A DNA stretch of 64,000 nucleotides from Escherichia coli (GCF_044324875.1 NZ_CP172185.1), one strand, 5' to 3'; positions 37,014-50,826 are shown, counted from the stretch's first letter. The notes: generated by a model from the sequence alone, not told the origin. A program made the numbers and translations.

Positions 37014-38240
37014 ATGGATAAACTACTTGAGCGATTTTTGAACTACGTGTCTCTGGATACCCAATCAAAGGCAGGGGTGAGACAGGTTCCCAGCACGGAA
37101 GGCCAATGGAAGTTATTGCATCTGCTGAAAGAGCAGCTCGAAGAGATGGGGCTTATCAATGTGACCTTAAGTGAGAAGGGCACTTTGATGGCGACGTTAC
37201 CGGCTAACGTCCCTGGCGATATCCCGGCGATTGGCTTTATTTCTCATGTGGATACCTCACCGGATTGCAGCGGCAAAAATGTGAATCCGCAAATTGTTGA
37301 AAACTATCGCGGTGGCGATATTGCGCTGGGTATCGGCGATGAAGTTTTATCACCGGTTATGTTCCCGGTGCTGCATCAGCTACTGAGTCAGACGCTGATT
37401 ACCACCGATGGTAAAACCTTGTTAGGAGCCGATGACAAAGCAGGTATTGCAGAAATCATGACCGCGCTGGCGGTATTGCAACAGAAAAACATTCCGCATG
37501 GTGATATTCGCGTCGCCTTTACCCCGGATGAAGAAGTGGGCAAAGGGGCGAAACATTTTGATGTTGACGCCTTCGATGCCCGCTGGGCTTACACCGTTGA
37601 TGGTGGTGGCGTAGGCGAACTGGAGTTTGAAAACTTCAACGCTGCGTCGGTCAATATCAAAATTGTAGGCAATAACGTTCACCCAGGCACAGCGAAAGGT
37701 GTAATGGTGAATGCGCTGTCGCTGGCGGCACGTATTCATGCGGAAGTTCCGGCGGATGAAAGCCCGGAAATGACAGAAGGCTATGAAGGTTTCTATCACC
37801 TGGCGAGCATGAAAGGCACCGTTGAACGGGCCGATATGCACTACATCATCCGTGATTTCGACCGTAAACAGTTTGAAGCGCGTAAACGTAAAATGATGGA
37901 GATCGCCAAAAAAGTGGGCAAAGGGTTACATCCTGATTGCTACATTGAATTGGTGATTGAAGACAGTTACTACAATATGCGCGAGAAAGTGGTTGAGCAT
38001 CCGCATATTCTCGATATCGCCCAGCAGGCGATGCGTGACTGCGATATTGAACCGGAACTGAAACCGATCCGCGGCGGTACCGACGGCGCGCAGTTGTCGT
38101 TTATGGGATTACCGTGCCCGAACCTGTTCACTGGCGGTTACAACTATCATGGTAAGCATGAGTTTGTGACTCTGGAAGGTATGGAAAAAGCGGTGCAGGT
38201 GATCGTCCGTATTGCCGAGTTAACGGCGCAACGGAAGTAA
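37014..38240 (+). CDS. pepT: Peptidase T (tripeptide aminopeptidase)
   Basis: 408 aa from [13 protein letters not shown]20 family metal-binding motifs (HVDT, GADDKAG). Confidence 0.95.
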
Positions 38241-38288
38241 GCGAAAAGGGATGCGGCATGTGATGCCGCATCCGGCTTAAATCCAAAC

Positions 38289-39410
38289 TTACCCTTCGAA
38301 GAACCAATACCCGCTATTGACCAGCGCCGCGAGCATCGCGAGGAATGACGGATCTTCCAGCGCATCGCCAAAATTCTCCGCAGTCAGCGCAATGTTGCTG
38401 GCGAGTGCATCCAGTGCCGGACGGTGCGGGGAATCGATCTTCTCACCATTGGCATACACGTCGTCGCCAATGCGCAATACGCGCAGACCACCCAGACGCA
38501 CCAGCACTTCACCTTGTTTCAGCGCATCGTAGATTTCATCCGGCTGATAAGGCGGCTCTGGCGGCGCGATATCCAGTTCATGGCGTGACTGGGATATAAA
38601 CTCCCCAAACCATTGCTTAAAGTGTTCCGGCTGGTTGATCAATTCGAGCATCATCTCACGCAGTTTATCCATCTCTTGCGGCAGAACATCCGCAGGATGA
38701 GCGCGAGGTGAAACATCAGGATCGCTGTAGTAGTTGCCGCCCAGTTCACGTTGCAGCACATAATCGGCAAATCCGCTAATCAGTTCCCGCGTATTTGGTG
38801 CGCGAAAACCGACGGAATAGTTCATCGCATTTTCCAGCGCGTAGCCTTCATGGGGGAATCCTGGCGGAATATAAAGAATATCGCCTGGCTCCAGTTCTTC
38901 ATCAATGATGGCTTCGAACGGATCAACCTGTAACAGATCCGGGTGCGGGCAGTGCTGTTTCATTTGCAGCTTTTCGCCCACTCGCCAGCGACGACGTCCG
39001 GTACCCTGAATGATAAACACGTCGTACTGATCGAGATGCGGGCCGACGCCGCCGCCAGGTACAGAAAAAGAGATCATCAGATCATCAATACGCCAGTCCG
39101 GTAGTTCACGGAACGGTCGCATCAGCGCGGCGGTCGGCTCATGCCAGTGGTTCACTGCCTGCACTAACAATGACCAGTTAGTTTCACCGAGATGATCGTA
39201 GCTTTCGAACGGGCCGTGGCTGACCTGCCATTTGCCATCCTGGTGGCTGACCAGTCGACTGTCGACTTCGCTTTCCATCGCCAGACCCGCCAACTCGTCT
39301 GGAGAGATCGGGTCAATAAAATTATTAAAGCCGCGTTTTAACACCACCGGACGTTTCTGCCAGTGACGTTCAAGAAAATCGGGCCAGTTAAGAGTGAGTT
39401 GGTATTCCAT
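38289..39410 (-). CDS. roxA: Ribosomal oxygenase RoxA (YcfD), JmjC/cupin family
   Basis: 373 aa from MEYQLTLNWPDFLERHW; synteny with pepT. Confidence 0.9.
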   Translation of the reverse strand: MEYQLTLNWPDFLERHWQKRPVVLKRGFNNFIDPISPDELAGLAMESEVDSRLVSHQDGKWQVSHGPFESYDHLGETNWSLLVQAVNHWHEPTAALMRPFRELPDWRIDDLMISFSVPGGGVGPHLDQYDVFIIQGTGRRRWRVGEKLQMKQHCPHPDLLQVDPFEAIIDEELEPGDILYIPPGFPHEGYALENAMNYSVGFRAPNTRELISGFADYVLQRELGGNYYSDPDVSPRAHPADVLPQEMDKLREMMLELINQPEHFKQWFGEFISQSRHELDIAPPEPPYQPDEIYDALKQGEVLVRLGGLRVLRIGDDVYANGEKIDSPHRPALDALASNIALTAENFGDALEDPSFLAMLAALVNSGYWFFEG

Positions 39411-39611
39411 GTTAAGCATCCACAGGCTGGTATCTGCAACCGATTATAACGGATGCTTAACGTAATGCGTGAAGTATGGGCATACTTTATCAATTAGTGT
39501 TTTTTGCCGTTTCATAATGTTTCAGGTTGTGCATTATGTTTTTGATTATAAACAAATTTGTGATTTTTCTTGTTCCAGCTTGTTTCACGTTGTAGCCCTT
39601 TGTGCAACGAT

Positions 39612-39637
39612 CGGTGTAGTTAATGGTGTAGTTAATT
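39612..39637 (+). repeat. attL core: 26-bp direct repeat cggtgtagttaatggtgtagttaatt
   Basis: Identical copy at 50721-50746; itself contains an internal tandem gtgtagttaat duplication. Confidence 0.8.
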
Positions 39638-40888
39638 GTGATGACCGGATTCAAAATTATGAGCAGAGCACTTAACAAGCTGAGCGATACACAGCTAAGG
39701 AAAATCAACGGCACACCCGCCCAAAAAACAGCCTTTCTTAATGACGGTGGAAACTTGAGCGTCAGGCATTCAACCAGCGGCCTTTTAACCTGGTATTTCA
39801 CTTACAGGGCCGGAACGGGAAGGGGGGCATCACCGGAACGCATTAAGCTGGGAAATTATCCTGATCTGAGCCTGAAATCAGCCAGGGAAAAAGCCGCCCA
39901 GTGTCGCGCATGGCTGGCTGAGGGGAAAAATCCACGTCATGAGATGAATTACACCGTACAGGAAGCGTTAAAGCCTGTAACGGTTGGCGATGCGCTCACC
40001 TACTGGCTTGAGTCGTACGCAAAGGAAAACCGTGTGGATTATGACCCACTGAAAAAGCGGCTAAATAATCACGTAATACAGCACATTGGCCCTATGCCGC
40101 TGGATAAATGCGAGCTACGGCACTGGCTGGCCTGTTTTGATCGGGTGGCAAAGCAAGCCCCTGTTTCCGCCGGGTTCCTGCTACAGACATGCAAACAGGC
40201 GCTTAAGTTCTGCCGGAAGCGGCGCTATGCAATCAGCAACGTTCTTGATGATATGAGTGTGGCTGACGTTGGGAAAAAACCGGATATAGGCGAACGTGTC
40301 TTAAGTACCAAAGAACTGGGCGAATTATTGCAGGCACTGGACAAAAAAATATTTTCCCCTTACTACGTCGCACTAATCCGCCTCCTGATTGTTTTCGGAT
40401 GCCGGACAGTAGAACTGAGGTTATCGGAGATCGGCGAGTGGGATTTTACCGAAATGCTCTGGACCGTTCCGAAGGAGCACAGCAAAACGAAGGTAGCCAT
40501 ATTCCGGCCCATACCGGAAGCGATACTGCCGTTCGTCACGCAGCTGATGGAGCAGAACAGGCACACGGGCTTATTGCTGGGGGAAGTGAAACAGGAAACC
40601 AGCGTGTCGCAGTACGGCAGATTAGTGCACAGGAGGCTTAAACACCCTCACTGGTCACTGCATGACATCCGGCGCACCTTTACAACGATGCTGAACGATT
40701 TAGGCGTGGATCCTCACGTCGTGGAGCAGCTTACAGGCCACCAGATGCCAGGAATGCAGCGAGTTTATAATCATTCCCGTTATCTGGATGCGAAACGCAA
40801 TGCGCTGGATATGTGGACGGAGCGGTTAGGGATACTGGCGGGAGCACATGAAAACGTAACCACGCTACCAGTAACCAGAAGAAAATAA
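39638..40888 (+). CDS. int: Tyrosine-type site-specific integrase (P4-like family)
   Basis: C-terminal catalytic signature (…HDIRRTFTTML…GHQMPGMQRVYNHSRYLD…); true start possibly at MSRALNKLS (39659). Confidence 0.85.
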   Translation: MMTGFKIMSRALNKLSDTQLRKINGTPAQKTAFLNDGGNLSVRHSTSGLLTWYFTYRAGTGRGASPERIKLGNYPDLSLKSAREKAAQCRAWLAEGKNPRHEMNYTVQEALKPVTVGDALTYWLESYAKENRVDYDPLKKRLNNHVIQHIGPMPLDKCELRHWLACFDRVAKQAPVSAGFLLQTCKQALKFCRKRRYAISNVLDDMSVADVGKKPDIGERVLSTKELGELLQALDKKIFSPYYVALIRLLIVFGCRTVELRLSEIGEWDFTEMLWTVPKEHSKTKVAIFRPIPEAILPFVTQLMEQNRHTGLLLGEVKQETSVSQYGRLVHRRLKHPHWSLHDIRRTFTTMLNDLGVDPHVVEQLTGHQMPGMQRVYNHSRYLDAKRNALDMWTERLGILAGAHENVTTLPVTRRK

Positions 40889-40937
40889 TTTTTTTCGTGT
40901 TTTTTCAGTATGCGCATACTGGATAAGTGCACAGATA

Positions 40938-40969
40938 CAACGTGAAACAATAAGCAACAACGTGAAACA
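40938..40969 (+). repeat. Two direct copies of CAACGTGAAACA (candidate integrase arm-type or regulator binding sites)
   Basis: Copies at 40938-40949 and 40958-40969; inverted copies tgtttcacgttg at 39581-39592 (near attL) and tgttccacgttg at 50690-50701 (near attR). Confidence 0.5.
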
Positions 40970-41262
40970 ACCACGAACAAGAGGTCAAAAAGTATACAGA
41001 TTTATAAGTTGCTGATTTTTAATGCTCAACTGGTTTTTTATACATTAGCGAATAACGCTTTAAATAGTGAGAAAAAAGTCATAAAACGAGATTTTATGCC
41101 TTTGCATAATACTGAATTAAAATGATTTTTATTAAAATCACCCCGTTTCTGTAAAATACCCGCCACCAACATTTGCCAACTCTGAATCACCCTGACACAA
41201 TCAGACACATCCCAACGCAATAGAACACGAAATAACTCTTTAAGAAACGAAAGGGGGCAATA

Positions 41263-41451
41263 GTGTTAAGCACTGATCGGTTTATACGTGAAAAAGAATG
41301 CGAAAAGCTAACAGGCCTTAGCCGCTCATGCCGCTACCGCCTGGAAAAGGCCGGACAATTCCCATCACGGCGTAAGCTGGGCGGTCGTTCCGTTGGCTGG
41401 TCTTTATCCGAAGTTCTGGCATGGAAGGAAAGCTGCGAGGCAGTTCACTAA
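41263..41451 (+). CDS. AlpA/Xis-like small DNA-binding protein
   Basis: 62 aa; ...KECEKLTGLSRSCRYRLEKAGQFPSRRKLGGRSVGWSLSEVLAWK matches AlpA-type wHTH. Confidence 0.7.
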   Translation: MLSTDRFIREKECEKLTGLSRSCRYRLEKAGQFPSRRKLGGRSVGWSLSEVLAWKESCEAVH

Positions 41452-41777
41452 AAAGACTGGCGGCACACAGCCGCCACCCATCCACTAATACAGAGATTTA
41501 ACCATGAAGACTGGATATACGCCCGAACAGGGGCGGGGCTTCGTTCGGCCTGGTGAAACTGAAAAACAACAAAATCGCGGTTTTTCAGGCATAAAAAAAG
41601 CGGCCCCGATAAGGAGCCGCCTTTCTGAACAATTAACCTACAGCGCAAAAAATGAATCTGAGCAGTGGGATTATATCAACCGTGCAACGAAGCGCCACAA
41701 TTGCCGGATAACGGGCAAAGAAAAGGCCACCTGTCACGGTGGCCAATGTGATCAGTGTGGTGGCTTGCTGGTGGCTA

Positions 41778-41969
41778 TCAACCTTTGGGTTCTATACCGC
41801 GCCGCTTTAGTTCAGCGCGCCCCAACTCTTTAAGCCAGTTGGCTAGGCTTATGCCGTCGCTCTGCGCTTCTTTGTCGAATTGCTCTTTTAGCTCTGGAGA
41901 AATTCGCATTCTGAATTGTGGGGATTGCCCATCACCCTTAGGGCTTTTATCACGTTTGATTGTTGACAA
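41778..41969 (-). CDS. Arc/MetJ-type ribbon-helix-helix DNA-binding protein (candidate island repressor)
   Basis: 63 aa; FRMRISPELKEQFDKEAQSDGISLANWLKELG; transcribed divergently from the replication operon. Confidence 0.55.
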   Translation of the reverse strand: MSTIKRDKSPKGDGQSPQFRMRISPELKEQFDKEAQSDGISLANWLKELGRAELKRRGIEPKG

Positions 41970-42103
41970 GTGGTCACCTATTAAATTAGCCTTTCTATTG
42001 TTAGGTGGTCACCTTAACACGGGGACACTTAAAAAAGCAAAGCCCGAAGGCGCTAGGAACACCAACGGGCTTCTAACCACAAACCGTTATGAGAGGTAGT
42101 TTT

Positions 42104-42301
42104 ATGGCTGTAAGACAGCATACCCCACGACTAGCGCACACACAAACCGCCTTTGTGTGGCGTTTTCTGGCACTGAGTGCCGGAGAATCTCAAATCATCC
42201 ACGTAACCGCCTGGACGGAACGCGAAGCGCGTAGCCGTTGCCCGTCCGGTTGTGTTGCTGTATTCGCCGCCCGTATTCGTCAGGGGGTGTACCATGATTA
42301 A
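42104..42301 (+). CDS. Small hypothetical protein, first gene of rightward operon
   Basis: 65 aa from ATG 42104 with RBS gagagg; unknown family. Confidence 0.45.
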   Translation: MAVRQHTPRLAHTQTAFVWRFLALSAGESQIIHVTAWTEREARSRCPSGCVAVFAARIRQGVYHD

Positions 42302-42662
42302 CCTGTCACTTACCGATCTTAACCGCGTTCAGTTTCGTGAGAAATTTACCGGACAGCTACTCGTCAATGTGGAGAACGGGCGCATAGTGCGTAATTATCA
42401 CCTGCCGGATGGTGCAATTGCCGGAAGCGTTGAAGCATTGCTGGAACTGGCGGAACGTGCGCGACTGATTAAGCCGTCAACGAGCCATCACGATGATGAT
42501 CTGCATTTTACCGGATGTATGGTGAGTCACTACGAAAACGGCGTCGAGGTATCCTGCGAACGGCTGCGTGATGATTGCTGTTTCGGCACACTGCCGGAAT
42601 TTATCGAATTGCTGACCAGTTGCGGATATCAGGTTATTCAGGGGGTGCGCCATGTGCAATAA
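42294..42662 (+). CDS. Hypothetical protein (122 aa)
   Basis: Start MINLSLTDL overlaps upstream gene end; unknown family. Confidence 0.5.
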   Translation: MINLSLTDLNRVQFREKFTGQLLVNVENGRIVRNYHLPDGAIAGSVEALLELAERARLIKPSTSHHDDDLHFTGCMVSHYENGVEVSCERLRDDCCFGTLPEFIELLTSCGYQVIQGVRHVQ

Positions 42663-43107
42663 CATCCGTCCGGACGCAGCAGGCGAAGCCATCATAACGC
42701 TAATGCACGCGCTGATTGATATTTCATGCACGGCAGCAACCGCAGAAAAACACATTACCAGAGAGCCGGAATATACAGGGGCAATAATCCCGCATTCGCT
42801 GGCCTACGCACAGCTAACCGCTGATATGGCGCTGAATGAGGCTAAAGCCATCCTGATTGCTGATTGTGAAAATGGGGGGGGGGTTATGCGTGATGATCGT
42901 TTTAATTCCCTGAAACAGGAATTTTCCGGCGTTCCTGATAATGCGGCTGATGCGCTTTCGTCAATATCTGAAATTATGCGGGTGGCTTTTTTCTTTCTTT
43001 GCACTGATGAGCACAGGGATACAGGGCTAAATATTCTTGATATCGCCGCTAATTATGCTGATTTCGTAACGGAAACTGTTTTAAGAAAAACGACGGACGG
43101 GGATTAA
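42652..43107 (+). CDS. Hypothetical protein (151 aa)
   Basis: Overlapping start with previous gene; unknown family. Confidence 0.5.
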   Translation: MCNNIRPDAAGEAIITLMHALIDISCTAATAEKHITREPEYTGAIIPHSLAYAQLTADMALNEAKAILIADCENGGGVMRDDRFNSLKQEFSGVPDNAADALSSISEIMRVAFFFLCTDEHRDTGLNILDIAANYADFVTETVLRKTTDGD

Positions 43108-43108
43108 T

Positions 43109-43342
43109 ATGCGTGATATTTACCACGAAACAATAGACCGCGCATTTCTTGCACTTTCTCACAGTGAAAATATGTTGGAAATATTGCGCATATGTCTTGA
43201 AACGCTTGGAGATAATGAACGTGATAAACAGAAATCAATGATTGTCACGGCATTAATAACGCTTCTTGAGCCTGTAATAAATGAGTTGCAGGAAATAGAG
43301 ACATTACACGACCAGTATAAAGCGCCCCACACCGGAGAATAA
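43109..43342 (+). CDS. Hypothetical protein (77 aa)
   Basis: Tightly packed in operon; unknown family. Confidence 0.45.
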   Translation: MRDIYHETIDRAFLALSHSENMLEILRICLETLGDNERDKQKSMIVTALITLLEPVINELQEIETLHDQYKAPHTGE

Positions 43343-43347
43343 AAAAC

Positions 43348-43635
43348 ATGAAAAATAAAAATTCTGGCGTTAATGCCAGCGGCCCCGCTCGTCCTGAAAT
43401 CCGTCCCGGCGATATTTTCCGTGATAACTACGGCGGCACGGTAATGATTAAGGGCGTGGAAGAACGGCGCGTAACCTACCGCCGTGATGGCTACGAATAT
43501 GACTGCGTTATGCCTGTTTATCAGTTCCGGCGTGATTTCACGCTGGTGGGCCATCGTAAAGCCGTTAATCAGAAACGTGCTGCAAGTTATATCCGCAAAA
43601 TCCGTGAAATGCTGGTCGCAGGGGGTAAGAAATGA
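43348..43635 (+). CDS. Hypothetical basic protein (95 aa)
   Basis: Overlaps helicase gene start (ATGA); unknown family. Confidence 0.45.
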   Translation: MKNKNSGVNASGPARPEIRPGDIFRDNYGGTVMIKGVEERRVTYRRDGYEYDCVMPVYQFRRDFTLVGHRKAVNQKRAASYIRKIREMLVAGGKK

Positions 43636-45038
43636 AACTTGCACCGAACGTAAAACTGTTACCGAAAGATAAACACACTGAGGCGGTTATTTTTGCGGGT
43701 GATAATGCTCACTCCTTTGCAGAACATTACATGATTGCACAGGCCAAAAAAGCAGGCGATCCCATCCCTCCGGTTTACCTGGGCCGTTATCAGTTAAGCG
43801 AACTGGACAACTTACAGATTGTTGATGAAGGACGATACAGGGCAAAGGTCATACGCGCCGGAAACCTGGACGATATGCAGATGCTGACCATTGCCACAAA
43901 ACTGGCGATCGCCGGAGTCCAGGAGGCGCGCCTACTTTCTGAAAATTTCGAACTGCTGGAGGACTGGAGCGACCAGCTACCACGACTACGGGAAACATGG
44001 GAGAGAGGGGAAAGCCTGGTCATGAATGGCGGAAAGCGAAAAATCACACTTCCCATCTCATGGGGTTCTGAGGGATTCGATGCGCAGCAAAGCTACGTCA
44101 TTAAGGGGCTTATTCCGGCTGAGTCATTATGCAGCACCTACGGGGCCAGCGGTTCTTATAAATCGTTCCTCGCCATTTCCTGGTCGTGCCATGTTGCCAC
44201 AGGTATGGCATGGGGAGGCCGCAGGGTAAGTAAGGGTGCGGTTATCTATATCGCTGGCGAAGGCAGCATGGGCGTAAAACGCCGCGTTAAGGCGTGGGAG
44301 ATAACCCACGACAAGGTGGTTACAGATTTGTGCATCATTAACGCGCCTGTTTTCCCTGCATCGCCTGACTATGTGGAGCAGGTTATCAGGACTGCCGGAC
44401 TTGTTAAGAGCAGAACGGGCGAAAATGTGCGGCTGATTGTGATCGACACGCTGGCCCGTTGCTTTGGTGGGAATGATGAAAATGATTCCCGTGATATGGG
44501 CGCATTTATCCAGGGGTGTGACGCGATAAAGCAGGCCACAGGGGCCACGGTGCTGGTGGTTCACCATTCCGGCAAGGATGAAACAAAGGGGGCGCGTGGT
44601 TCCAGTGCATTCCGTGCCGCGCTTGATGCAGAGTACCGAATCAGCCGCGAAAATTCAGACGTTACAGCACTGGTCGCAGCATGTACGAAGATGAAGGACG
44701 CAGAGGAGCCAAAAGAGAGCGCATACGACCTTAAAAGCGTGGAGGTGTTCACCGATACAGATGGCGAAGAAATTGTGTCCATGGTGGTGATTGACGTTCC
44801 CCGCGCCCCTGCTGAACTGGAGCGCATCGAGGAGGCAGGCAACAAGACGGAAAACCATACCGCGCTATGGGGGTGCATCCGTTCACGCACACAGAACGGC
44901 GACAAGTGCACGATCCCGCTGTTACGTGATGACATGAAACGGCTTGGGTATGACGTGAAAAATATGCGGCGATGGTTAGCCAAACTGGAAAAAGACGCCG
45001 TGATTTACATTGATGGTGATGATGTAGGACCACTGTAA
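43632..45038 (+). CDS. Replication protein, RecA-fold P-loop ATPase/helicase (RepA/DnaB-like, satellite pri-rep position)
   Basis: 468 aa; P-loop-like YGASGSYKS, Walker-B-like LIVIDTL, followed immediately by iteron cluster. Confidence 0.7.
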   Translation: MKLAPNVKLLPKDKHTEAVIFAGDNAHSFAEHYMIAQAKKAGDPIPPVYLGRYQLSELDNLQIVDEGRYRAKVIRAGNLDDMQMLTIATKLAIAGVQEARLLSENFELLEDWSDQLPRLRETWERGESLVMNGGKRKITLPISWGSEGFDAQQSYVIKGLIPAESLCSTYGASGSYKSFLAISWSCHVATGMAWGGRRVSKGAVIYIAGEGSMGVKRRVKAWEITHDKVVTDLCIINAPVFPASPDYVEQVIRTAGLVKSRTGENVRLIVIDTLARCFGGNDENDSRDMGAFIQGCDAIKQATGATVLVVHHSGKDETKGARGSSAFRAALDAEYRISRENSDVTALVAACTKMKDAEEPKESAYDLKSVEVFTDTDGEEIVSMVVIDVPRAPAELERIEEAGNKTENHTALWGCIRSRTQNGDKCTIPLLRDDMKRLGYDVKNMRRWLAKLEKDAVIYIDGDDVGPL

Positions 45039-45238
45039 AAAGTGAGTAGTAAAAGTGAGTAATGGTGAGGTTTTTACAAAATATTAACACAATTACTCAC
45101 TTTCTCACCTGTATACATGCTCAAAAGTGAGCAGTGAAAAAACACTTATGAAACATGCACATATAAAACACAAAAATCTCAAGTGAGACGAAGTGAGACG
45201 CTTTAAAAAGTGAGTAGTAAAAGTGAGAGATGGTGAGC
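45037..45238 (+). repeat. Iteron cluster, putative island replication origin
   Basis: Multiple aaaagtgag / ggtgag repeats in both orientations around an AT-rich spacer (tttttacaaaatattaacacaatta), directly downstream of helicase gene. Confidence 0.65.
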
Positions 45239-45239
45239 A

Positions 45240-45608
45240 ATGAATAAAAACCGAACAGCAGGACAAAATACCGAAGGTAAATTTATGAACACTGAAATTG
45301 AAACACTGAGCATATCAACTGCCCTTCCTGGCTGGTGGGCTAAGTTCAAAGACGACGACGGCACGGAATGGTATAGCCCAATTGCTGCATGGGCGCTTTG
45401 TGATATCCACCATTTCGGCACCGGAGATACTTACCGCGAAATCTTACCCGTGCTGACCAGTGAGCTGGGCATGAGTCCGCATAGTCCTGATGAGGGAATG
45501 TGCGAGTGCCTTTATCTGCCGGATAAGAAGTTTGTTCACTGTGGTGAATCGATGGTATTTGCCTGGTATCCGGTTAACGACAGCAGCAATAGCGGTACTC
45601 TGGAGTAA
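45240..45608 (+). CDS. Hypothetical protein (122 aa; alternative start at 45285)
   Basis: ORF after ori; unknown family. Confidence 0.45.
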   Translation: MNKNRTAGQNTEGKFMNTEIETLSISTALPGWWAKFKDDDGTEWYSPIAAWALCDIHHFGTGDTYREILPVLTSELGMSPHSPDEGMCECLYLPDKKFVHCGESMVFAWYPVNDSSNSGTLE

Positions 45609-45611
45609 ATC

Positions 45612-45854
45612 ATGAAGGTAAACCACAAAAAGACAGATCACCGCGCCATTGACCTTACAGAGCACTGGCTGAGGGTGGCGATAAAAATCATCGACCGCAA
45701 CACGGGGGAAGGATACGCGAAAGCACATCCCGAACTGATAAGTGCATTCATGACCACAGCGGCGGCAAACTTTGCCACGCTGACAGAGCGGGATATTGCC
45801 GAAGCAGAACAGGTAACAACCATCAACGTTAAAACCAGTGAGGTGGAATCATGA
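45612..45854 (+). CDS. Hypothetical protein (80 aa)
   Basis: ORF overlapping ssb start; unknown family. Confidence 0.45.
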   Translation: MKVNHKKTDHRAIDLTEHWLRVAIKIIDRNTGEGYAKAHPELISAFMTTAAANFATLTERDIAEAEQVTTINVKTSEVES

Positions 45855-46261
45855 CAGCACAGATAGCGGCTTACGGGCGGCTGGTGGACGACCCGCAGGT
45901 AAAACAGACCAGTAAGGGTACACCGATGACGCTGGCGCGTATGGCGGTATCTTTACCATGCGGCCAGGCACAGGACGGACAGGCGACGTTATGGTTATCG
46001 GTCATCGCATTTGGCAAACAGGCCGACTTTCTGGCTAAACATCAAAAAGGCGACGTTGCCAGCGTATCCGGCACGATGCAGGTCAGCCAGTGGACCGGAC
46101 AGAACGGGGAAACGCGGCAGGGTTATCAGGTTATTGCAGACAGCGTAATCAGTGCCCGTGCGGCACGTCCTGGCGGGAACAGACGCAAAACCACAGGCAC
46201 ACAGGGTAATCAGCCACCAGCGGGAGGCGATGACCCTTACGGTGATGATATTCCGTTCTGA
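45851..46261 (+). CDS. Single-stranded DNA-binding protein (short SSB)
   Basis: 136 aa OB-fold-like with Gly/Pro-rich tail ending in acidic DDIPF, as in E. coli SSB. Confidence 0.7.
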   Translation: MTAQIAAYGRLVDDPQVKQTSKGTPMTLARMAVSLPCGQAQDGQATLWLSVIAFGKQADFLAKHQKGDVASVSGTMQVSQWTGQNGETRQGYQVIADSVISARAARPGGNRRKTTGTQGNQPPAGGDDPYGDDIPF

Positions 46262-46271
46262 GGGGGTGACG

Positions 46272-46544
46272 ATGGTACATGACCGCATAGCGGAGGAACT
46301 CGAGGCAAAAGGATTTTACCGGAGGGCGGCGGCGCGATGGGGTGAAGTTATGAGGCTGGTGAGCACTGACAAGGAGCGCGAACAGGTGGCAATGCGACGG
46401 CTGGAATGTTCCCTGAAGGCACAGAGGCCACCGGAGCCGCCGGATGATTTAGGCGCTCTGAAAAGGTCAGTTAATCGCACTGAAAAACAAATGGGGATAG
46501 CTGGTATTGGCAAAGCAATATGGCGCAACTACCCGCAGAAGTGA
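46272..46544 (+). CDS. PerC-family transcriptional regulator homologue
   Basis: 90 aa from MVHDRIAEELEAKGFYRRAAARW (RBS aggggg); resembles PerC/Pch family N-terminus as remembered. Confidence 0.55.
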   Translation: MVHDRIAEELEAKGFYRRAAARWGEVMRLVSTDKEREQVAMRRLECSLKAQRPPEPPDDLGALKRSVNRTEKQMGIAGIGKAIWRNYPQK

Positions 46545-46551
46545 GCACACA

Positions 46552-46573
46552 GCCGGAGCAATCCGGCTTTTTT
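46552..46573 (+). terminator. Rho-independent terminator after perC-like gene
   Basis: gccgga-gcaa-tccggc followed by tttttt. Confidence 0.7.
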
Positions 46574-46585
46574 ACGCCTAAAAAA

Positions 46586-46622
46586 AGCCCGATAAGGTCA
46601 AAGGGGGCTTATCGGGCTTTTG
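46586..46622. terminator. Second hairpin, possibly bidirectional terminator
   Basis: 11-bp stem agcccgataag / cttatcgggct flanked by A-run and T-run. Confidence 0.5.
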
Positions 46623-46784
46623 TAGAGGAGGTTTTTTATGGTGCACTGGCACACATGATCGGGATAATCATTTCATAATTTGCAACATAACTCAATATTG
46701 TTGCGCAAAATGCAATCATGATTATAATCAGGACTGGATGAACATCCAGTTATGATTTTTTAAGTCAAAGAGGAATTTCTGACT

Positions 46785-46991
46785 ATGGCAGAAGAGAAAA
46801 AAGGCGGGGTGACGGTCTACATAAGCCCCGACATCGTGGAGGCGCTCAAGGAACGCCACCAGCAGAATGTAAAAGCAGGCATTGCGGCAGGACTTGATCC
46901 GCTGGCGATGGTTGAGCCGTCAACAGGCTGGCAGGTGCGTACCTATTTACGTGCGGCGCTGGGTATCAATCAGGTTCACGGAGGTGAATAA
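46785..46991 (+). CDS. Small hypothetical protein preceding capsid gene
   Basis: 68 aa; stop overlaps capsid gene ATG. Confidence 0.45.
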   Translation: MAEEKKGGVTVYISPDIVEALKERHQQNVKAGIAAGLDPLAMVEPSTGWQVRTYLRAALGINQVHGGE

Positions 46992-48046
46992 TGACAGGCA
47001 AAGCAAAGGCACTTACAACTAACCAGCTTTTCGCGTACCTGAATCGCGGGGATATTTCGGAATATAAATTTAGTCCGCTGTTTACCACGCTGTTTTTCCC
47101 GAACGTGGCGACCTTCAACACCCAAAACATCATGCTGGACACCCTGGACATTGAAGAGGTTACGATGTCAGCGTTCTGTTCTCCTATGGTGGGTAGTCAG
47201 GTCCAGCGCGATAAAGGGTACGAAACCAGCACGATTAAACCAGGCTACATGAAGCCAAAGCACGAAATCGATCCAACAAAGACCATCATGCGCATGGATG
47301 GAGAAGATCCGGCACAGCTTAACGATCCAACTTACCGCCGTATGCGCCTGATTACTGGCAACATGCGCCGCCAGATAAACGCCATTAAGGCGCGCGTGGA
47401 ATGGCTGGCGGTGAATGCGGTAACGACCGGAAAAAACATCATTGAGGGCGAAGGCATAGAACGCTATGAAATCGACTGGAAAATACCGGAAAACTGCATC
47501 ATACAGCAGGCCAGTGGTAAAAAATGGTCCCAGCAGGATAAAGACATGCACGACCCAATCTATGACATCGAGCTTTATGCTGATCAGGCAGGTTGCCCCG
47601 CCAACGTCATGATTATGGGCGGTGAGGTATGGCGCACATTACGCAGCTTTAAAAAATTCCGTGAACTGTACGATCTTTCCCGTGGATCAGAATCCGCCGC
47701 CGAGCTGGCCTGTAAAAACCTGGGCGAAGTGGTGAGCTTTAAAGGCTATCTTGGTGATCTGGCCCTTATCGTCTATTCCGGCAAATACACTGACAGCGAC
47801 GGGACCGAAAAATATTTCCTTGAGCCTGATTTGCTGGTCCTGGGTAACACCAACAATAAAGGGCTGGTGGCATATGGTGCGATTATGGATCAGGAAGCGG
47901 TAAGAACGGGCGCAACGCAAAACATGTACTACCCGAAAAACTGGATTGAGGACGGCGATCCGGCGATTGAGTACGTGCAGACGCACAGCGCACCGCAGCC
48001 TGTACCGGCAGATATTCGCAAATTTGTTACCGTCAAAATTGCTTAA
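46991..48046 (+). CDS. Lambda gpE-family major capsid protein homologue
   Basis: 351 aa; collinear similarity to lambda E (KFSPLFTTLFF / KFDPLFLRLFF; PGYMKPKHEI / PGYVKPKHEV; DPTYRRMRLI / DPAYRRRRII; YYPKNWIEDGDPAIEY / RYPKNWVTTGDPAREF). Confidence 0.8.
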   Translation: MTGKAKALTTNQLFAYLNRGDISEYKFSPLFTTLFFPNVATFNTQNIMLDTLDIEEVTMSAFCSPMVGSQVQRDKGYETSTIKPGYMKPKHEIDPTKTIMRMDGEDPAQLNDPTYRRMRLITGNMRRQINAIKARVEWLAVNAVTTGKNIIEGEGIERYEIDWKIPENCIIQQASGKKWSQQDKDMHDPIYDIELYADQAGCPANVMIMGGEVWRTLRSFKKFRELYDLSRGSESAAELACKNLGEVVSFKGYLGDLALIVYSGKYTDSDGTEKYFLEPDLLVLGNTNNKGLVAYGAIMDQEAVRTGATQNMYYPKNWIEDGDPAIEYVQTHSAPQPVPADIRKFVTVKIA

Positions 48047-48057
48047 CGGGGGATTCT

Positions 48058-48393
48058 ATGGACGCTCCATACATTGAGTTATTTTCAGGCAGCCAACAGG
48101 TATCCACGACGCTGGTACATTTTGCCGCTGATGCTGGCGTTATTCAGGAATTTACCCCGCTGATGCTGGCAGACAATGGCGAGTTTAAGCCGTGGGATGG
48201 TAAGGAATCTGGCAAGGCTGTTTATCTGACCTCGTACCCTGTGGACACGTCAAAGCAGAAATCAGCACAGTGTTACAAGACGGGGATATTCAATATTGCC
48301 GCCGTTAACTGGCCTGACAGCGTCGACACCGATGCGAAAAAATGCGCCGCCTTTGCGGGTTCCGGCGTATCCGTTCAGCCGCTGGCCCGATAA
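48058..48393 (+). CDS. Lambda gpD-like head decoration protein homologue
   Basis: 111 aa; C-terminal GIFNIAAVNWPDSVDTDAKKCAAFAGSGVSV parallels lambda D [32 protein letters not shown]. Confidence 0.7.
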   Translation: MDAPYIELFSGSQQVSTTLVHFAADAGVIQEFTPLMLADNGEFKPWDGKESGKAVYLTSYPVDTSKQKSAQCYKTGIFNIAAVNWPDSVDTDAKKCAAFAGSGVSVQPLAR

Positions 48394-48467
48394 GCAGGGG
48401 GAACGATGGCACAAACCAGGGCGATGACGGCGACATCTATCGCATACTGAAAACCATCTGAGACAAG

Positions 48468-48490
48468 GCCGGAGAAATCCGGCTTTTTTT
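48468..48490 (+). terminator. Rho-independent terminator after decoration gene
   Basis: gccgga-gaaa-tccggc followed by ttttttt; near-duplicate of terminator at 46552. Confidence 0.7.
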
Positions 48491-48492
48491 GC

Positions 48493-48620
48493 GGGTCCTT
48501 TCCGGCATGTGGACCCGTTACGGGGCGTCGACCTCGCACGTTTTCGCTATTTATGAAAATTTTCCGGGAAAAAGCATGTCAGTTCTTCTTGTTATTAACA
48601 TATTGTTTTTAAAGAAATAA
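48493..48620 (+). promoter_or_regulatory. Lambda-type cos site (cosQ/cosN/cosB-like) upstream of terS
   Basis: gttacggggcgtcgacctcgcacgttttcgctatttatgaaaattttccgg closely matches remembered lambda cos (gttacggggcggcgacctcgcgggttttcgctatttatgaaaattttccgg); putative cosN gggcgtcgacct at 48523-48534. Confidence 0.75.
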
Positions 48621-48710
48621 CTATCAAGAAAGAAACGACATCATAATGATGAAAAATCTGTTTTTTTTGGCATTTCATGTCGTAACTGATTTTTGATAAG
48701 GAATTGCTGA

Positions 48711-49295
48711 ATGAATGTTAATAAAAAGAGGCTTGCCGAAATTTTTAACGTGGACCCGCGGACGATTGAACGCTGGCAGTCACAGGGGCTTCCTTGCGTC
48801 TCCAAAGGCAGTAAGGGCATTGAATCTGTATTTGATACTGCCATGGCAATTCAGTGGTATGCGCGGAGGGAAACTGATATCGAAAACGAAAAGCTCCGCA
48901 AAGAACTGGACGATTTGCGTGCGGCAGCGGAGTCAGATTTACAACCCGGCACCATTGACTATGAACGCTATCGGCTCACAAAAGCGCAGGCAGATGCGCA
49001 GGAACTTAAAAACGAGCGCGATCGCGGTGACGTGATTGATACAGAGTTTTGCATGTACGCGCTTTCAAAACTGGCGAGTCAGATTTCATCAATCATGGAC
49101 AGCCTCCCGCTTACTATGCAAAGGAGCTTCCCACAGATGACCCCCGCCATGCTGGATGGCCTGAAAAAAGAAGTTGTCAGAGCCTGTAACGCATGCACAA
49201 AACTTGATGAAAACATCCCGCGAATGCTGTCCGATTATCTGATGGAAACTACCGGAAATGTGCCTGATAAGTTTCAGCCGGATAAAGACAAGTAA
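48711..49295 (+). CDS. Terminase small subunit, lambda Nu1-like
   Basis: 194 aa; [28 protein letters not shown]...[29 protein letters not shown] parallels lambda Nu1 (MEVNKKQLADIFGASIRTIQNWQEQGMP...[29 protein letters not shown]). Confidence 0.85.
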
Positions 49296-49536
49296 CGTAG
49301 TGCACAATGACCGAAGCCAGTTTACTGACTGGCTTTCAGCGTTGCGCTGGTGGGCGTTATGCGTCAGTGATAAACGTCTCCAATATTACTGATATTCGAC
49401 ATCCCCACCTCTCCACACCAGCTCGAATATCATTTTTCTCATTAAAAACAGGACATTAAAAACTGGTCAGATGTCCCATAAAAAGCCAAATGGGACAGGT
49501 CAAAAGCTTTTTTTGCAGTAATTTTCAATAGGTTAC

Positions 49537-49935
49537 TTGATGTGGTGGTGTCCCATGAAAATTCAAAAATCAGCCGTTTTCCGCGATGCTCCCGCCCCGT
49601 GGCAGGGCACCCCACAAGGAGGACCCGCCATCACTATGGAGGACATGACCATGACCGAGACCGAAGCGCTCGGGATAATCCGCAGTATTACCGGAATCAG
49701 CCAGCAGGCTGGCGAACAGGAGGCCACGCAGCCGGACAGCGTGATCGCCGAAAATTACGTGCGTGTTGTTGCTGATGTAATGCGCCGTGATGGTATTGAG
49801 CTTAACGGCGTGGATATGCGCGACATACGAATCAGAGTACTAGAGTTGCTGGCATACCGTCGACGCGTGGCGATGTATCAGGAGAGCGCGAAAAACACTT
49901 ATCAGTGGAAGAAGCCGGAGCGGTTACGGCGGTAA
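49537..49935 (+). CDS. Hypothetical protein downstream of terS (likely shorter, start near 49651)
   Basis: ORF of 132 aa; RBS ggagg favours ATG around 49651 giving about 95 aa; unknown family. Confidence 0.4.
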   Translation: MMWWCPMKIQKSAVFRDAPAPWQGTPQGGPAITMEDMTMTETEALGIIRSITGISQQAGEQEATQPDSVIAENYVRVVADVMRRDGIELNGVDMRDIRIRVLELLAYRRRVAMYQESAKNTYQWKKPERLRR

Positions 49936-50290
49936 CTGGTTGATATTTTCGAAATTCGCCAGCGGCGAACATCGGGGAAACCAGCCTAACCAGTTGATTC
50001 TTTCGGAAACAGCCATTGGCGGAATCCGGCGCGGTAACTTGCTGATATTCCCGATAACGCAAAATTGCGCTGGCTACATCCCTCACATCTGAGGACTGAT
50101 AATGCGACATTGCGCTGGCTGGCAAAGTGCAAAATTGCACGATGGCCTAACCCATTGATTATTTCGAAAACCTGCAATGCAGGAAATCGGGGAAGTAAGC
50201 CTAAGCTATTGATTCTTTCGGAAACCTCAATTTGAGGAAGTCGGCGCGGTAACTCGCTGAACTTAAAGCAAACCTCAAAATTGAGCTGGC
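49932..50290 (+). repeat. Array of four degenerate repeats of a ttgattctttcggaaac-like motif with associated short palindromes
   Basis: Motif variants ggttgatattttcgaaat (49938-), cagttgattctttcggaaac (49991-), cattgattatttcgaaaac (50154-), ctattgattctttcggaaac (50205-); cggcgcggtaact at 50028 and 50242. Confidence 0.6.
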
Positions 50291-50720
50291 TGAATAATCA
50301 TTATGATTACGCAGATGATTAAGGAATGACCGAAGGCGGAAATTCGCCTGTGGTTGATGGGGGAGTTGCAGATCTGCAACTCGACCATGAAACTACGGAA
50401 ACTACCCGTAGTTTGGGTAGTAAGAGTAACACCCAGATTTTGGGACTTACTCGTGATACCCAAATTTGGAGTATCGGTGGCAACCATAACGACTTTCGTT
50501 ACGGTTGATGCTTTTACCCCATTGGGGGAAAGGTATTACGATAATCATAACACCTACCGAACAGGTAAAGCCCACCAGCCTGATTGACATTTAACCGGAA
50601 AAAAAGCCAGGTAGCCCCGTTATGTGGATCCCCATATCGACAGCAACGCCCCCTTAAAATTACCCGCCTTTATATTTCTTGTGCCTATTTGTTCCACGTT
50701 GTTTCATACAGTGCGCCGAA

Positions 50721-50746
50721 CGGTGTAGTTAATGGTGTAGTTAATT
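50721..50746 (+). repeat. attR core: second copy of 26-bp direct repeat
   Basis: cggtgtagttaatggtgtagttaatt identical to 39612-39637. Confidence 0.8.
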
Positions 50747-50826
50747 TGCGATTTTTGGCACTTTTGTTTGTGTATATTTTTAATTAAATCAATACATTAA
50801 CTAATATCGGTGATAAAAGGGCATAT

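Follow-up and report, generated by a model that had tools for sequence, protein, structure and literature searches.

Helically phased TTGT arrays, proposed AlpA operators, lie beside candidate integrase arm-type sites in an EcCICFT073-type satellite of Escherichia coli

Which protein reads a 12-nucleotide motif that recurs at both ends of an integrated island and again behind its integrase gene? The question is raised by a 64,000-nucleotide stretch of Escherichia coli DNA (GCF_044324875.1, NZ_CP172185.1; hereafter the window), in which an 11.3-kb phage satellite carries exact copies of CAACGTGAAACA at 39581-39592 (minus strand), 40938-40949 (plus strand) and 40958-40969 (plus strand). Three exact copies compare with 0.02 expected, and none of 100 shuffles reached that number. 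The original prediction, made from the sequence alone, described four copies of the 12-mer, two of them next to the copies of a 26-bp repeat, took that repeat for the attachment (att) core and read the 12-mer as a candidate arm-type site of the island integrase. The coordinates and orientations of all four copies are right, but they are not identical, as the copy at 50690-50701 (minus strand) reads CAACGTGGAACA, with one mismatch to CAACGTGAAACA. The 12-mer is very probably a protein-binding element of a recombination and regulation module. It is not, however, the repeated unit, since it spans one and a bit units of an array in which TTGT returns every 10 bp. The arrays and the 12-mer copies are arranged in the window as follows:

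39518-39529, minus strand: degenerate 12-mer copy CAACCTGAAACA, one mismatch, within TGTTT repeats of loose phase that separate the main left-arm array from the crossover.
39570-39609, plus strand: left-arm array of four units, TTGTTCCAGC TTGTTTCACG TTGTAGCCCT TTGTGCAACG, including the 12-mer copy at 39581-39592 (phase scan).
40931-40980, minus strand: array 3' of the integrase gene int, five units, TTGTTCGTGG TTGTTTCACG TTGTTGCTTA TTGTTTCACG TTGTATCTGT, including the copies at 40938-40949 and 40958-40969 (phase scan and Tandem Repeats Finder).
41190-41219, minus strand: related array TTGCGTTGGG ATGTGTCTGA TTGTGTCAGG over the predicted -10 element (41196-41201) and leader of the alpA promoter, PalpA (promoter scan and phase test).
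50679-50708, plus strand: right-arm array of three units, TTGTGCCTAT TTGTTCCACG TTGTTTCATA, including the one-mismatch copy at 50690-50701 (phase scan).

Within the 64 kb, only three places have TTGT in exact 10-bp phase over at least three units, against a shuffle mean of 0.03, and Tandem Repeats Finder independently returned a period of 10 with the consensus ACAACGTGAA. The array over PalpA follows the pattern (T/A)TG(T/C)GT within 41190-41229, and its phase test gave 0 in shuffles. Across 66 related loci the positions of the arrays are kept while the number of units ranges from 3 to 6, and the left-arm array is conserved in 21 related left arms. In a conservation set of 32 distinct arrays and 138 units, a unit was defined by TTGT recurring every 10 bp; beyond these four bases conservation is moderate at positions 5-7 (T, C/T, C) and weak at positions 8-10, with TTGTT(C/T)C(A/T)CG as consensus; 3' of int, relatives keep only ACAA/TTGT and the phase. 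The exact 12-mer is kept in the left arm of related islands; the right arm always has at least one mismatch, and the copies after int drift.

The arrays are also not confined to the att region. The one 3' of int lies 1.45 kb from the crossover, and the 10-bp phase of the PalpA array is kept in diverged alpA promoters, both of the L008 type (AGGTGTCTTA TTGTGTCGTA TTGTTCCCGC) and of the CFT073 type (TTGGGTTGGG TTGTGTCGGA TTGTGTCAGG). Many relatives with an HK97-type head module carry an extra five-unit array just after the perC terminator; in locus L007 the extra array is about 210 nt upstream of the HK97 capsid-protease-portal operon, L071 carries one too, and these capsid-operon arrays stand 5-7 kb from att. 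A late-operon array was not found in the window island or in EcCICFT073. Between the int stop codon and the array that follows it lies a perfect 16-bp palindrome, CAGTATGCGCATACTG (40906-40921), which is present in most relatives and absent from the EcCICFT073 type.

To place the arrays relative to recombination, the ends of the island must be fixed. Positions 39485-50825 are an EcCICFT073-type phage-inducible chromosomal island (PICI) integrated at GGGCATA just after phoQ, with the host genes roxA (= ycfD, 38289-39419) on one side and phoQ-phoP-purB on the other:

39478-39484, no strand: attL junction repeat GGGCATA, the crossover region (K-12 empty site, left-flank divergence and the published att GGACATATTT).
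50819-50825, no strand: attR junction repeat GGGCATA, 1 nt from the phoQ stop codon (K-12 empty site and published att).

The empty site in K-12 reads gtgaagtatGGGCATAtttattcatc, which places the insertion between the two GGGCATA copies. The first island base is 39485, and the left flanks of islands at other sites part exactly there. In TUM1886 a 98%-identical island interrupts tqsA, with common sequence from 39485 to about 50800 and ATAACAGCA flanking it; the reconstructed empty tqsA site was found at 100% identity in example genomes and at 80% query coverage or more in 5175 genomes. At least five different host sequences adjoin related left arms, and the IMG/VR contig L031 is a circular form. 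Our crossover of GGGCATA compares with the GGACATATTT published for EcCICFT073, the founding paper listing GGACATATTT (ycfD-phoQ) and ATAACAGCA (tqsA) as att cores in its Table S1 (PMC6092414). No tRNA or tmRNA was found, nor any Rfam family in 38000-52000, and the island therefore does not target an RNA gene.

These junctions remove the 26-bp repeat (39612-39637 and 50721-50746) from the role of att core. It lies 129 nt inside the left junction and 74 nt inside the right one, none of it is present at the K-12 site, and the tqsA island of TUM1886 has the same 26-mer and the same 12-mer internal to its ends. The arm arrays are likewise island DNA around the true junctions, and K-12 attB is without them. 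When the island circularises, its two ends would join as an attP of about 300 bp.

If the 26-bp repeat is not the core, what is it? The repeat is a tandem doublet of the 12-bp unit GGTGTAGTTAAT, of which the window holds four exact copies. The two doublets are co-oriented, about 143 and 88 bp from the crossover, and in each arm the doublet follows a run of 3-4 TTGTTCCACG-like units after 4-13 bp; the 26-mer is included in a 75-nt direct repeat common to both arms (39563-39637 vs 50672-50746, 79% identical). The doublets, the integrase gene and a candidate bend site are:

39613-39636, plus strand: left-arm doublet, GGTGTAGTTAAT twice, candidate Int arm-type sites, ending 22 nt upstream of the int ATG (Tandem Repeats Finder and unit search).
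39659-40888, plus strand: int, P4-type tyrosine integrase of 409 aa, with Pfam Arm-DNA-bind_3 (residues 8-95) and Phage_integrase.
50722-50745, plus strand: right-arm doublet, GGTGTAGTTAAT twice, candidate Int arm-type sites (Tandem Repeats Finder and unit search).
50787-50799, plus strand: IHF-consensus match AATCAATACATTA, a candidate bend site between the right doublet and the crossover (consensus match); the ATCAA-N4-TTR pattern is retained in most right arms.

The evidence that links the doublets to the integrase comes from natural variation. Int is a mosaic in which residues 1-45, which fall into two classes, track the doublet, and residues 116-215, the core-binding domain, track the target (roxA-phoQ or tqsA); all four combinations of N-terminal class and target exist (loci include L001, L025 and L029). 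The classes are 67% identical in the 1-45 segment, class A reading ...KINGTPAQKTAFLNDGGNLSVRHSTSGLL... and class B ...KLHGKPAEKNTFYSDGGNLSVKYLTSGKL.... With class A goes the doublet GGTGTAGT(T/C)AAT (the TTAAT variant), and with class B GGTGTAGTCACT (the TCACT variant), whose second right-arm unit has (C/T)ATT. The doublet variant tracks Int residues 1-45 wherever both could be read; the left arms number 21 and the different right arms at least 24, one reading covering 16 right arms with known Int class and another 18, ten being in common. At doublet position 11 every class A unit has A and every class B unit has C or T, with no exceptions. Because the right-arm variant tracks Int class in both flanking sequence types, simple linkage does not explain the co-variation. 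In the natural chimera L025 a class B N-terminus is joined to a class A body, and the left arm has TCACT; the right arm was not recovered by an exact-pattern scan, and the chimera thus supports the link between doublet and Int for the left arm only. The doublet does not change with AlpA, since islands of both doublet classes share one AlpA variant. Four loci without int (L239, L269, L271 and L275) have a third form of the right-arm doublet, GGTGTAGTTACT GGTGTAGTCATT.

Int residues 8-95 match the solved arm-binding domains 3jtz/3rmp and 3ju0 in the PDB. In an AlphaFold model of Int (predicted local distance difference test score, pLDDT, 83), roughly half of the residues that differ between classes A and B are in or adjacent to strands 25-28 and 33-37 and the turn leading into strand 43-50; most of the others are in helix 10-16 and the loop that follows it. 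By analogy with the N-terminal domains of lambda and Tn916 Int, the sheet of this domain would contact DNA. Together, the co-variation with the Int N-terminus and the positional homology with P4 set out below suggest that the doublets are the integrase arm-type sites and a better candidate for that role than the 12-mer arrays; they would provide four half-sites for the N-terminal domains of an integrase tetramer. The arm-type reading of the original prediction thus survives in the placement of the motif in island DNA on both sides of the crossover, while its roles were misassigned, as it is the doublets that behave like integrase arm-type sites.

Several further observations touch int and the doublets. 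The last 25 or so nucleotides at the right end of the island switch with the target, imitating each attB. A sigma-70 scan found no consensus promoter upstream of int, and Pint was not located; a peptide-pattern scan of genome contigs with Int yielded no confirmed relative. Within int, 286 nt from its start, GGTGTAATTCAT (39944-39955, minus strand) has two mismatches to the doublet unit, and P4 has an arm repeat annotated 294 nt into its own int; the match may be due to chance, 3.9 such matches being expected per 64 kb. The sequence GGTGTAGTC presumably resembles the X2 site of lambda Xis (TATGTAGTC), a lead that is outweighed by the co-variation with Int. For EcCIDI14, in an IS110 context, Table S1 of the founding paper lists as att CGGTGTAGTTAATGGTGTAGTTAATT, the internal doublet (PMC6092414), which is probably a mis-assignment.

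The layout of the doublets has a close counterpart in P4. There too a P4-type integrase has an arm-binding N-domain, and int, which begins beside attP, points away from it. In the P4 record the features named "attP arm sequence repeat" are co-oriented 12-bp tandem doublets that flank the core at distances of 134 and 75 bp from its centre (here 143 and 88), and the int-proximal doublet is 16 nt from the start codon in P4 and 22 nt here. The P4 doublet, nnGGGGGCATAn, is unrelated in sequence to GGTGTAGTTAAT, P4 has no clean 10-bp TTGT array beside its doublets, unlike the window island, and it targets a tRNA gene through a 20-bp core, whereas the identity here extends over 7-10 bp and is intergenic. 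The P4 arm repeat GGGGGCATAT (L142, 4151-4174) resembles the island crossover GGGCATAT (39478-39485), probably by coincidence.

The HE-PICIs, which have an integrase of a related family, carry a doubled motif of 12-bp period, tgTGTATTGCantgTGTATTGCa, which is present twice in each attP and in one orientation, at -81 and +132 bp (PMC10111431), and their int-proximal copy is also preceded by a TGTT-rich, roughly phased stretch. Their motif differs in sequence from ours; the paper reports that the doubled motif was not found in other PICIs and leaves its binder undecided between the Int arm domains and AlpA (PMC10111431). In the island examined here a different doublet fills these positions, and the fact that it varies together with the Int N-terminus favours Int as its binder.

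What, then, would bind the arrays? The arrays consist of 3-6 direct repeats one helical turn apart with a short core, they are found both at att and at a promoter, and they accompany the AlpA/Vis-family gene alpA, as is characteristic of the operators of recombination directionality factors (RDFs). Such operators are weakly specific, cooperative direct repeats one helix turn apart that occur at att and at promoters, as described for 186 Apl (PMC7498355), the P2 Cox boxes (PMC3936717) and KplE1 TorI (PMC2951348). The candidate factor in this island is:

41263-41451, plus strand: alpA, encoding an AlpA/Vis-family winged-helix regulator of 62 aa (Pfam PF05930, E = 5e-18; PDB 8c3t, AlpA-family protein).

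AlpA is the only protein of that family in the island. The AlpA of EcCICFT073 is an activator of its own promoter and, when overexpressed, sets off excision and replication that depend on int (PMC6092414); Vis of P4, of the same AlpA/Vis family, is reported to act at att and at late promoters (PMC2951348, PMC6092414). On the strength of the RDF-like signature of the arrays, of AlpA being the sole member of its family in the island and of its role in EcCICFT073, we propose AlpA as the most likely array binder, a reading toward which we lean slightly. AlpA would be a Vis/Xis-like recombination directionality factor that also serves as an activator; its protomers would line up head to tail along an array, one to each helical turn, and the DNA would be bent. 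At the arm arrays it would shape attL and attR for excision beside the Int arm sites, and at the arrays 3' of int, over PalpA and upstream of the capsid operon of relatives it would control transcription. No AlpA binding site was reported in the literature that we searched.

The proposed operators share features with those of better-studied systems. The repeats of 186 Apl and P2 Cox are 10-11 bp apart, number 5-7 per site and vary in orientation among targets (PMC7498355, PMC3936717); they differ in protein family and sequence, and here arrays occupy both att arms, each beside an Int doublet. In KplE1 (CPS-53), the int promoter region overlaps attL, and the TorI sites, which overlap the intS promoter, form short-core blocks, among them three sites 2 nt apart, interleaved with IntS arm sites; TorI and IntS are both expected to influence int expression (PMC2951348). 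The TorI cores are GTTCG-like, however, IntS belongs to another lineage, and no array has been reported there 3' of int or at a late operon.

Five observations weigh against AlpA as the array binder. AlpA was without effect on an EcCICFT073 Pint-lacZ fusion, which may or may not span the left-arm array (PMC6092414), and that array lies just upstream of int. The same TTGT core is found in islands whose AlpA is only 56-68% identical (L070 and L071), so that co-variation does not tie the arrays to AlpA. An IMG/VR search with AlpA gave essentially the same contigs as one with Int, and since AlpA and this Int clade are always together in the sample, distribution does not separate the two as candidate binders. 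An array over a -10 element is an odd position for an activator. Lastly, in L070, a class C island, the doublet variants are mixed and the arrays irregular.

A bolder reading treats all the arrays, at both att arms, the int 3' end, PalpA and the late operon of capsid-forming relatives, as one operator system, a switch of Gram-negative PICIs read by AlpA filaments or, more radically, by Int acting as a repressor. We hold this to be improbable as a whole. If it were true, a constitutively made integrase would be the missing repressor that a helper phage must overcome, and the inverted arrays flanking int could loop it out.

Among the alternatives to AlpA, the one that survives best, although we judge it unlikely, is some other winged-helix or nucleoid protein: a host factor, such as a response regulator of the OmpR/PhoB family, whose members use 10-11-bp tandem half-sites, or another protein of the island or helper phage, such as PerC, a small-ORF product or a helper-encoded inducer of alpA. 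The array units contain TGAAACA/GNNACA-like half-sites at 10-bp phase, which we take to be reminiscent of OmpR sites. The island itself encodes PerC and several unannotated small proteins, a helper-phage factor switches on alpA (PMC6092414), and one of the arrays overlaps PalpA. Yet PhoP, OmpR and ArcA boxes, to which the phoPQ neighbourhood and the 10-bp tandem layout had drawn attention, differ in sequence from the core TTGTT(C/T)C and in spacing, the phase here being 10 bp and not 11, and identical islands are found in tqsA and elsewhere. The arrays also travel with the int-alpA module, which 877 E. coli genomes hold, through at least five chromosomal sites and among different replication and packaging modules, and the host DNA in the rest of the 64 kb is free of such arrays.

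Binding by the N-terminal domain of the integrase, the role that the original prediction gave to the 12-mer, fares less well, and we consider it rather unlikely. It would account for copies in both attP arms and beside int, the integrase does have an Arm-DNA-bind_3 domain, P4 has an annotated arm repeat far from its core, inside int, and array units such as TTGTAG resemble GTGTAG, the 5' half of the doublet. The arrays are nevertheless identical in class A and class B islands, although Int residues 1-45 are only 67% identical between them, and the adjacent doublet switches with class in both arms. By position, it is the doublets and not the arrays that are homologous to the P4 arm repeats and to the doubled motif of HE-PICIs. 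Arrays are present at PalpA and at capsid operons as well, and only a 4-5-base core and the phase are conserved.

Could the arrays have no dedicated binder at all, being the relic of a duplicated 75-nt arm segment in T/G-rich, bendable DNA? The direct repeat in the arms fits such an origin, as does the copy after int, which matches the left arm over 36 nt in inverted orientation. The TTGT core and its phase are retained, however, as the intervening bases and unit number drift, including in Int lineages at 67-78% DNA identity, and independent arrays stand at promoters, which makes this explanation very improbable in our view. That the arrays are cosB-like sites for a Nu1-type small terminase is least credible of all and can be put aside: the island encodes a Nu1-family protein and GTTTC(A/C) recalls the lambda R-site core CGTTTCC (seen in lambda and phi80 cos sequences), but the cosN-like sequence immediately precedes the Nu1 gene and is far from any array, and EcCICFT073, in which Pfam finds no Nu1, carries the same arrays, as do islands with HK97/P27 terminases.

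The remainder of the island agrees with its assignment to a known family. Its attB, its int-alpA-rep order, its unidirectional transcription and its length of about 11 kb are those of the EcCICFT073 type, and its Int is 94.6% identical to that of EcCICFT073. With EcCICFT073 of CFT073 it has in common the same attB, the same left and right arms and an array between int and alpA, of six units in EcCICFT073, as well as the gene order int-alpA-rep-ssb-perC-capsid E/D. It differs in having a RepA-type helicase and not a D5-type primase, and a Pfam-recognisable Nu1 at a position where EcCICFT073 is without one. Its gene content comprises int, alpA, DUF4222, the RepA-type helicase, single-stranded DNA-binding protein (SSB), PerC, a lambda E-like capsid protein, a D-like decoration protein and the Nu1-like small terminase; besides PerC, several small island proteins are without annotation.

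Three other regions of the island deserve mention. Just 3' of the RepA-type helicase gene, at 45033-45237, are three copies, about 84 bp apart, of an iteron-like repeat, AAAAGTGAG(T/C)AGT, probably the island replication origin. The cosN-like sequence GGGCGTCGACCT (48523-48534) has one mismatch to the lambda cohesive end, with the Nu1-family gene (48711-49295) directly downstream. The right end contains about 800 nt of non-coding DNA (49930-50700) with three copies of GATAACGCAAAATTGCGCTGGCT and four IHF-consensus matches, and it holds a 113-nt repeat (49933-50045 vs 50148-50260, 74% identical), similar repeats being present in L070.

Earlier work had already described the island, its att cores and what AlpA does, and P4-type arm doublets and RDF operator arrays are known kinds of element; neither doublet nor array was described for EcCICFT073-type or capsid-forming PICIs in the literature that we searched. 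None of this is a mechanism of a new kind; what the analysis adds is a map of ordinary elements in a satellite family already known. The map corrects the anatomy of a widely studied family and gives precise candidate Int and AlpA sites in EcCICFT073-type and capsid-forming PICIs. The class A/B swap further offers a natural specificity pair for the arm-binding domain, Int residues 1-45 against TTAAT or TCACT in four half-sites, and this swap, combined with the tracking of target by the core-binding domain, could serve the design of retargeted or orthogonal integrases.

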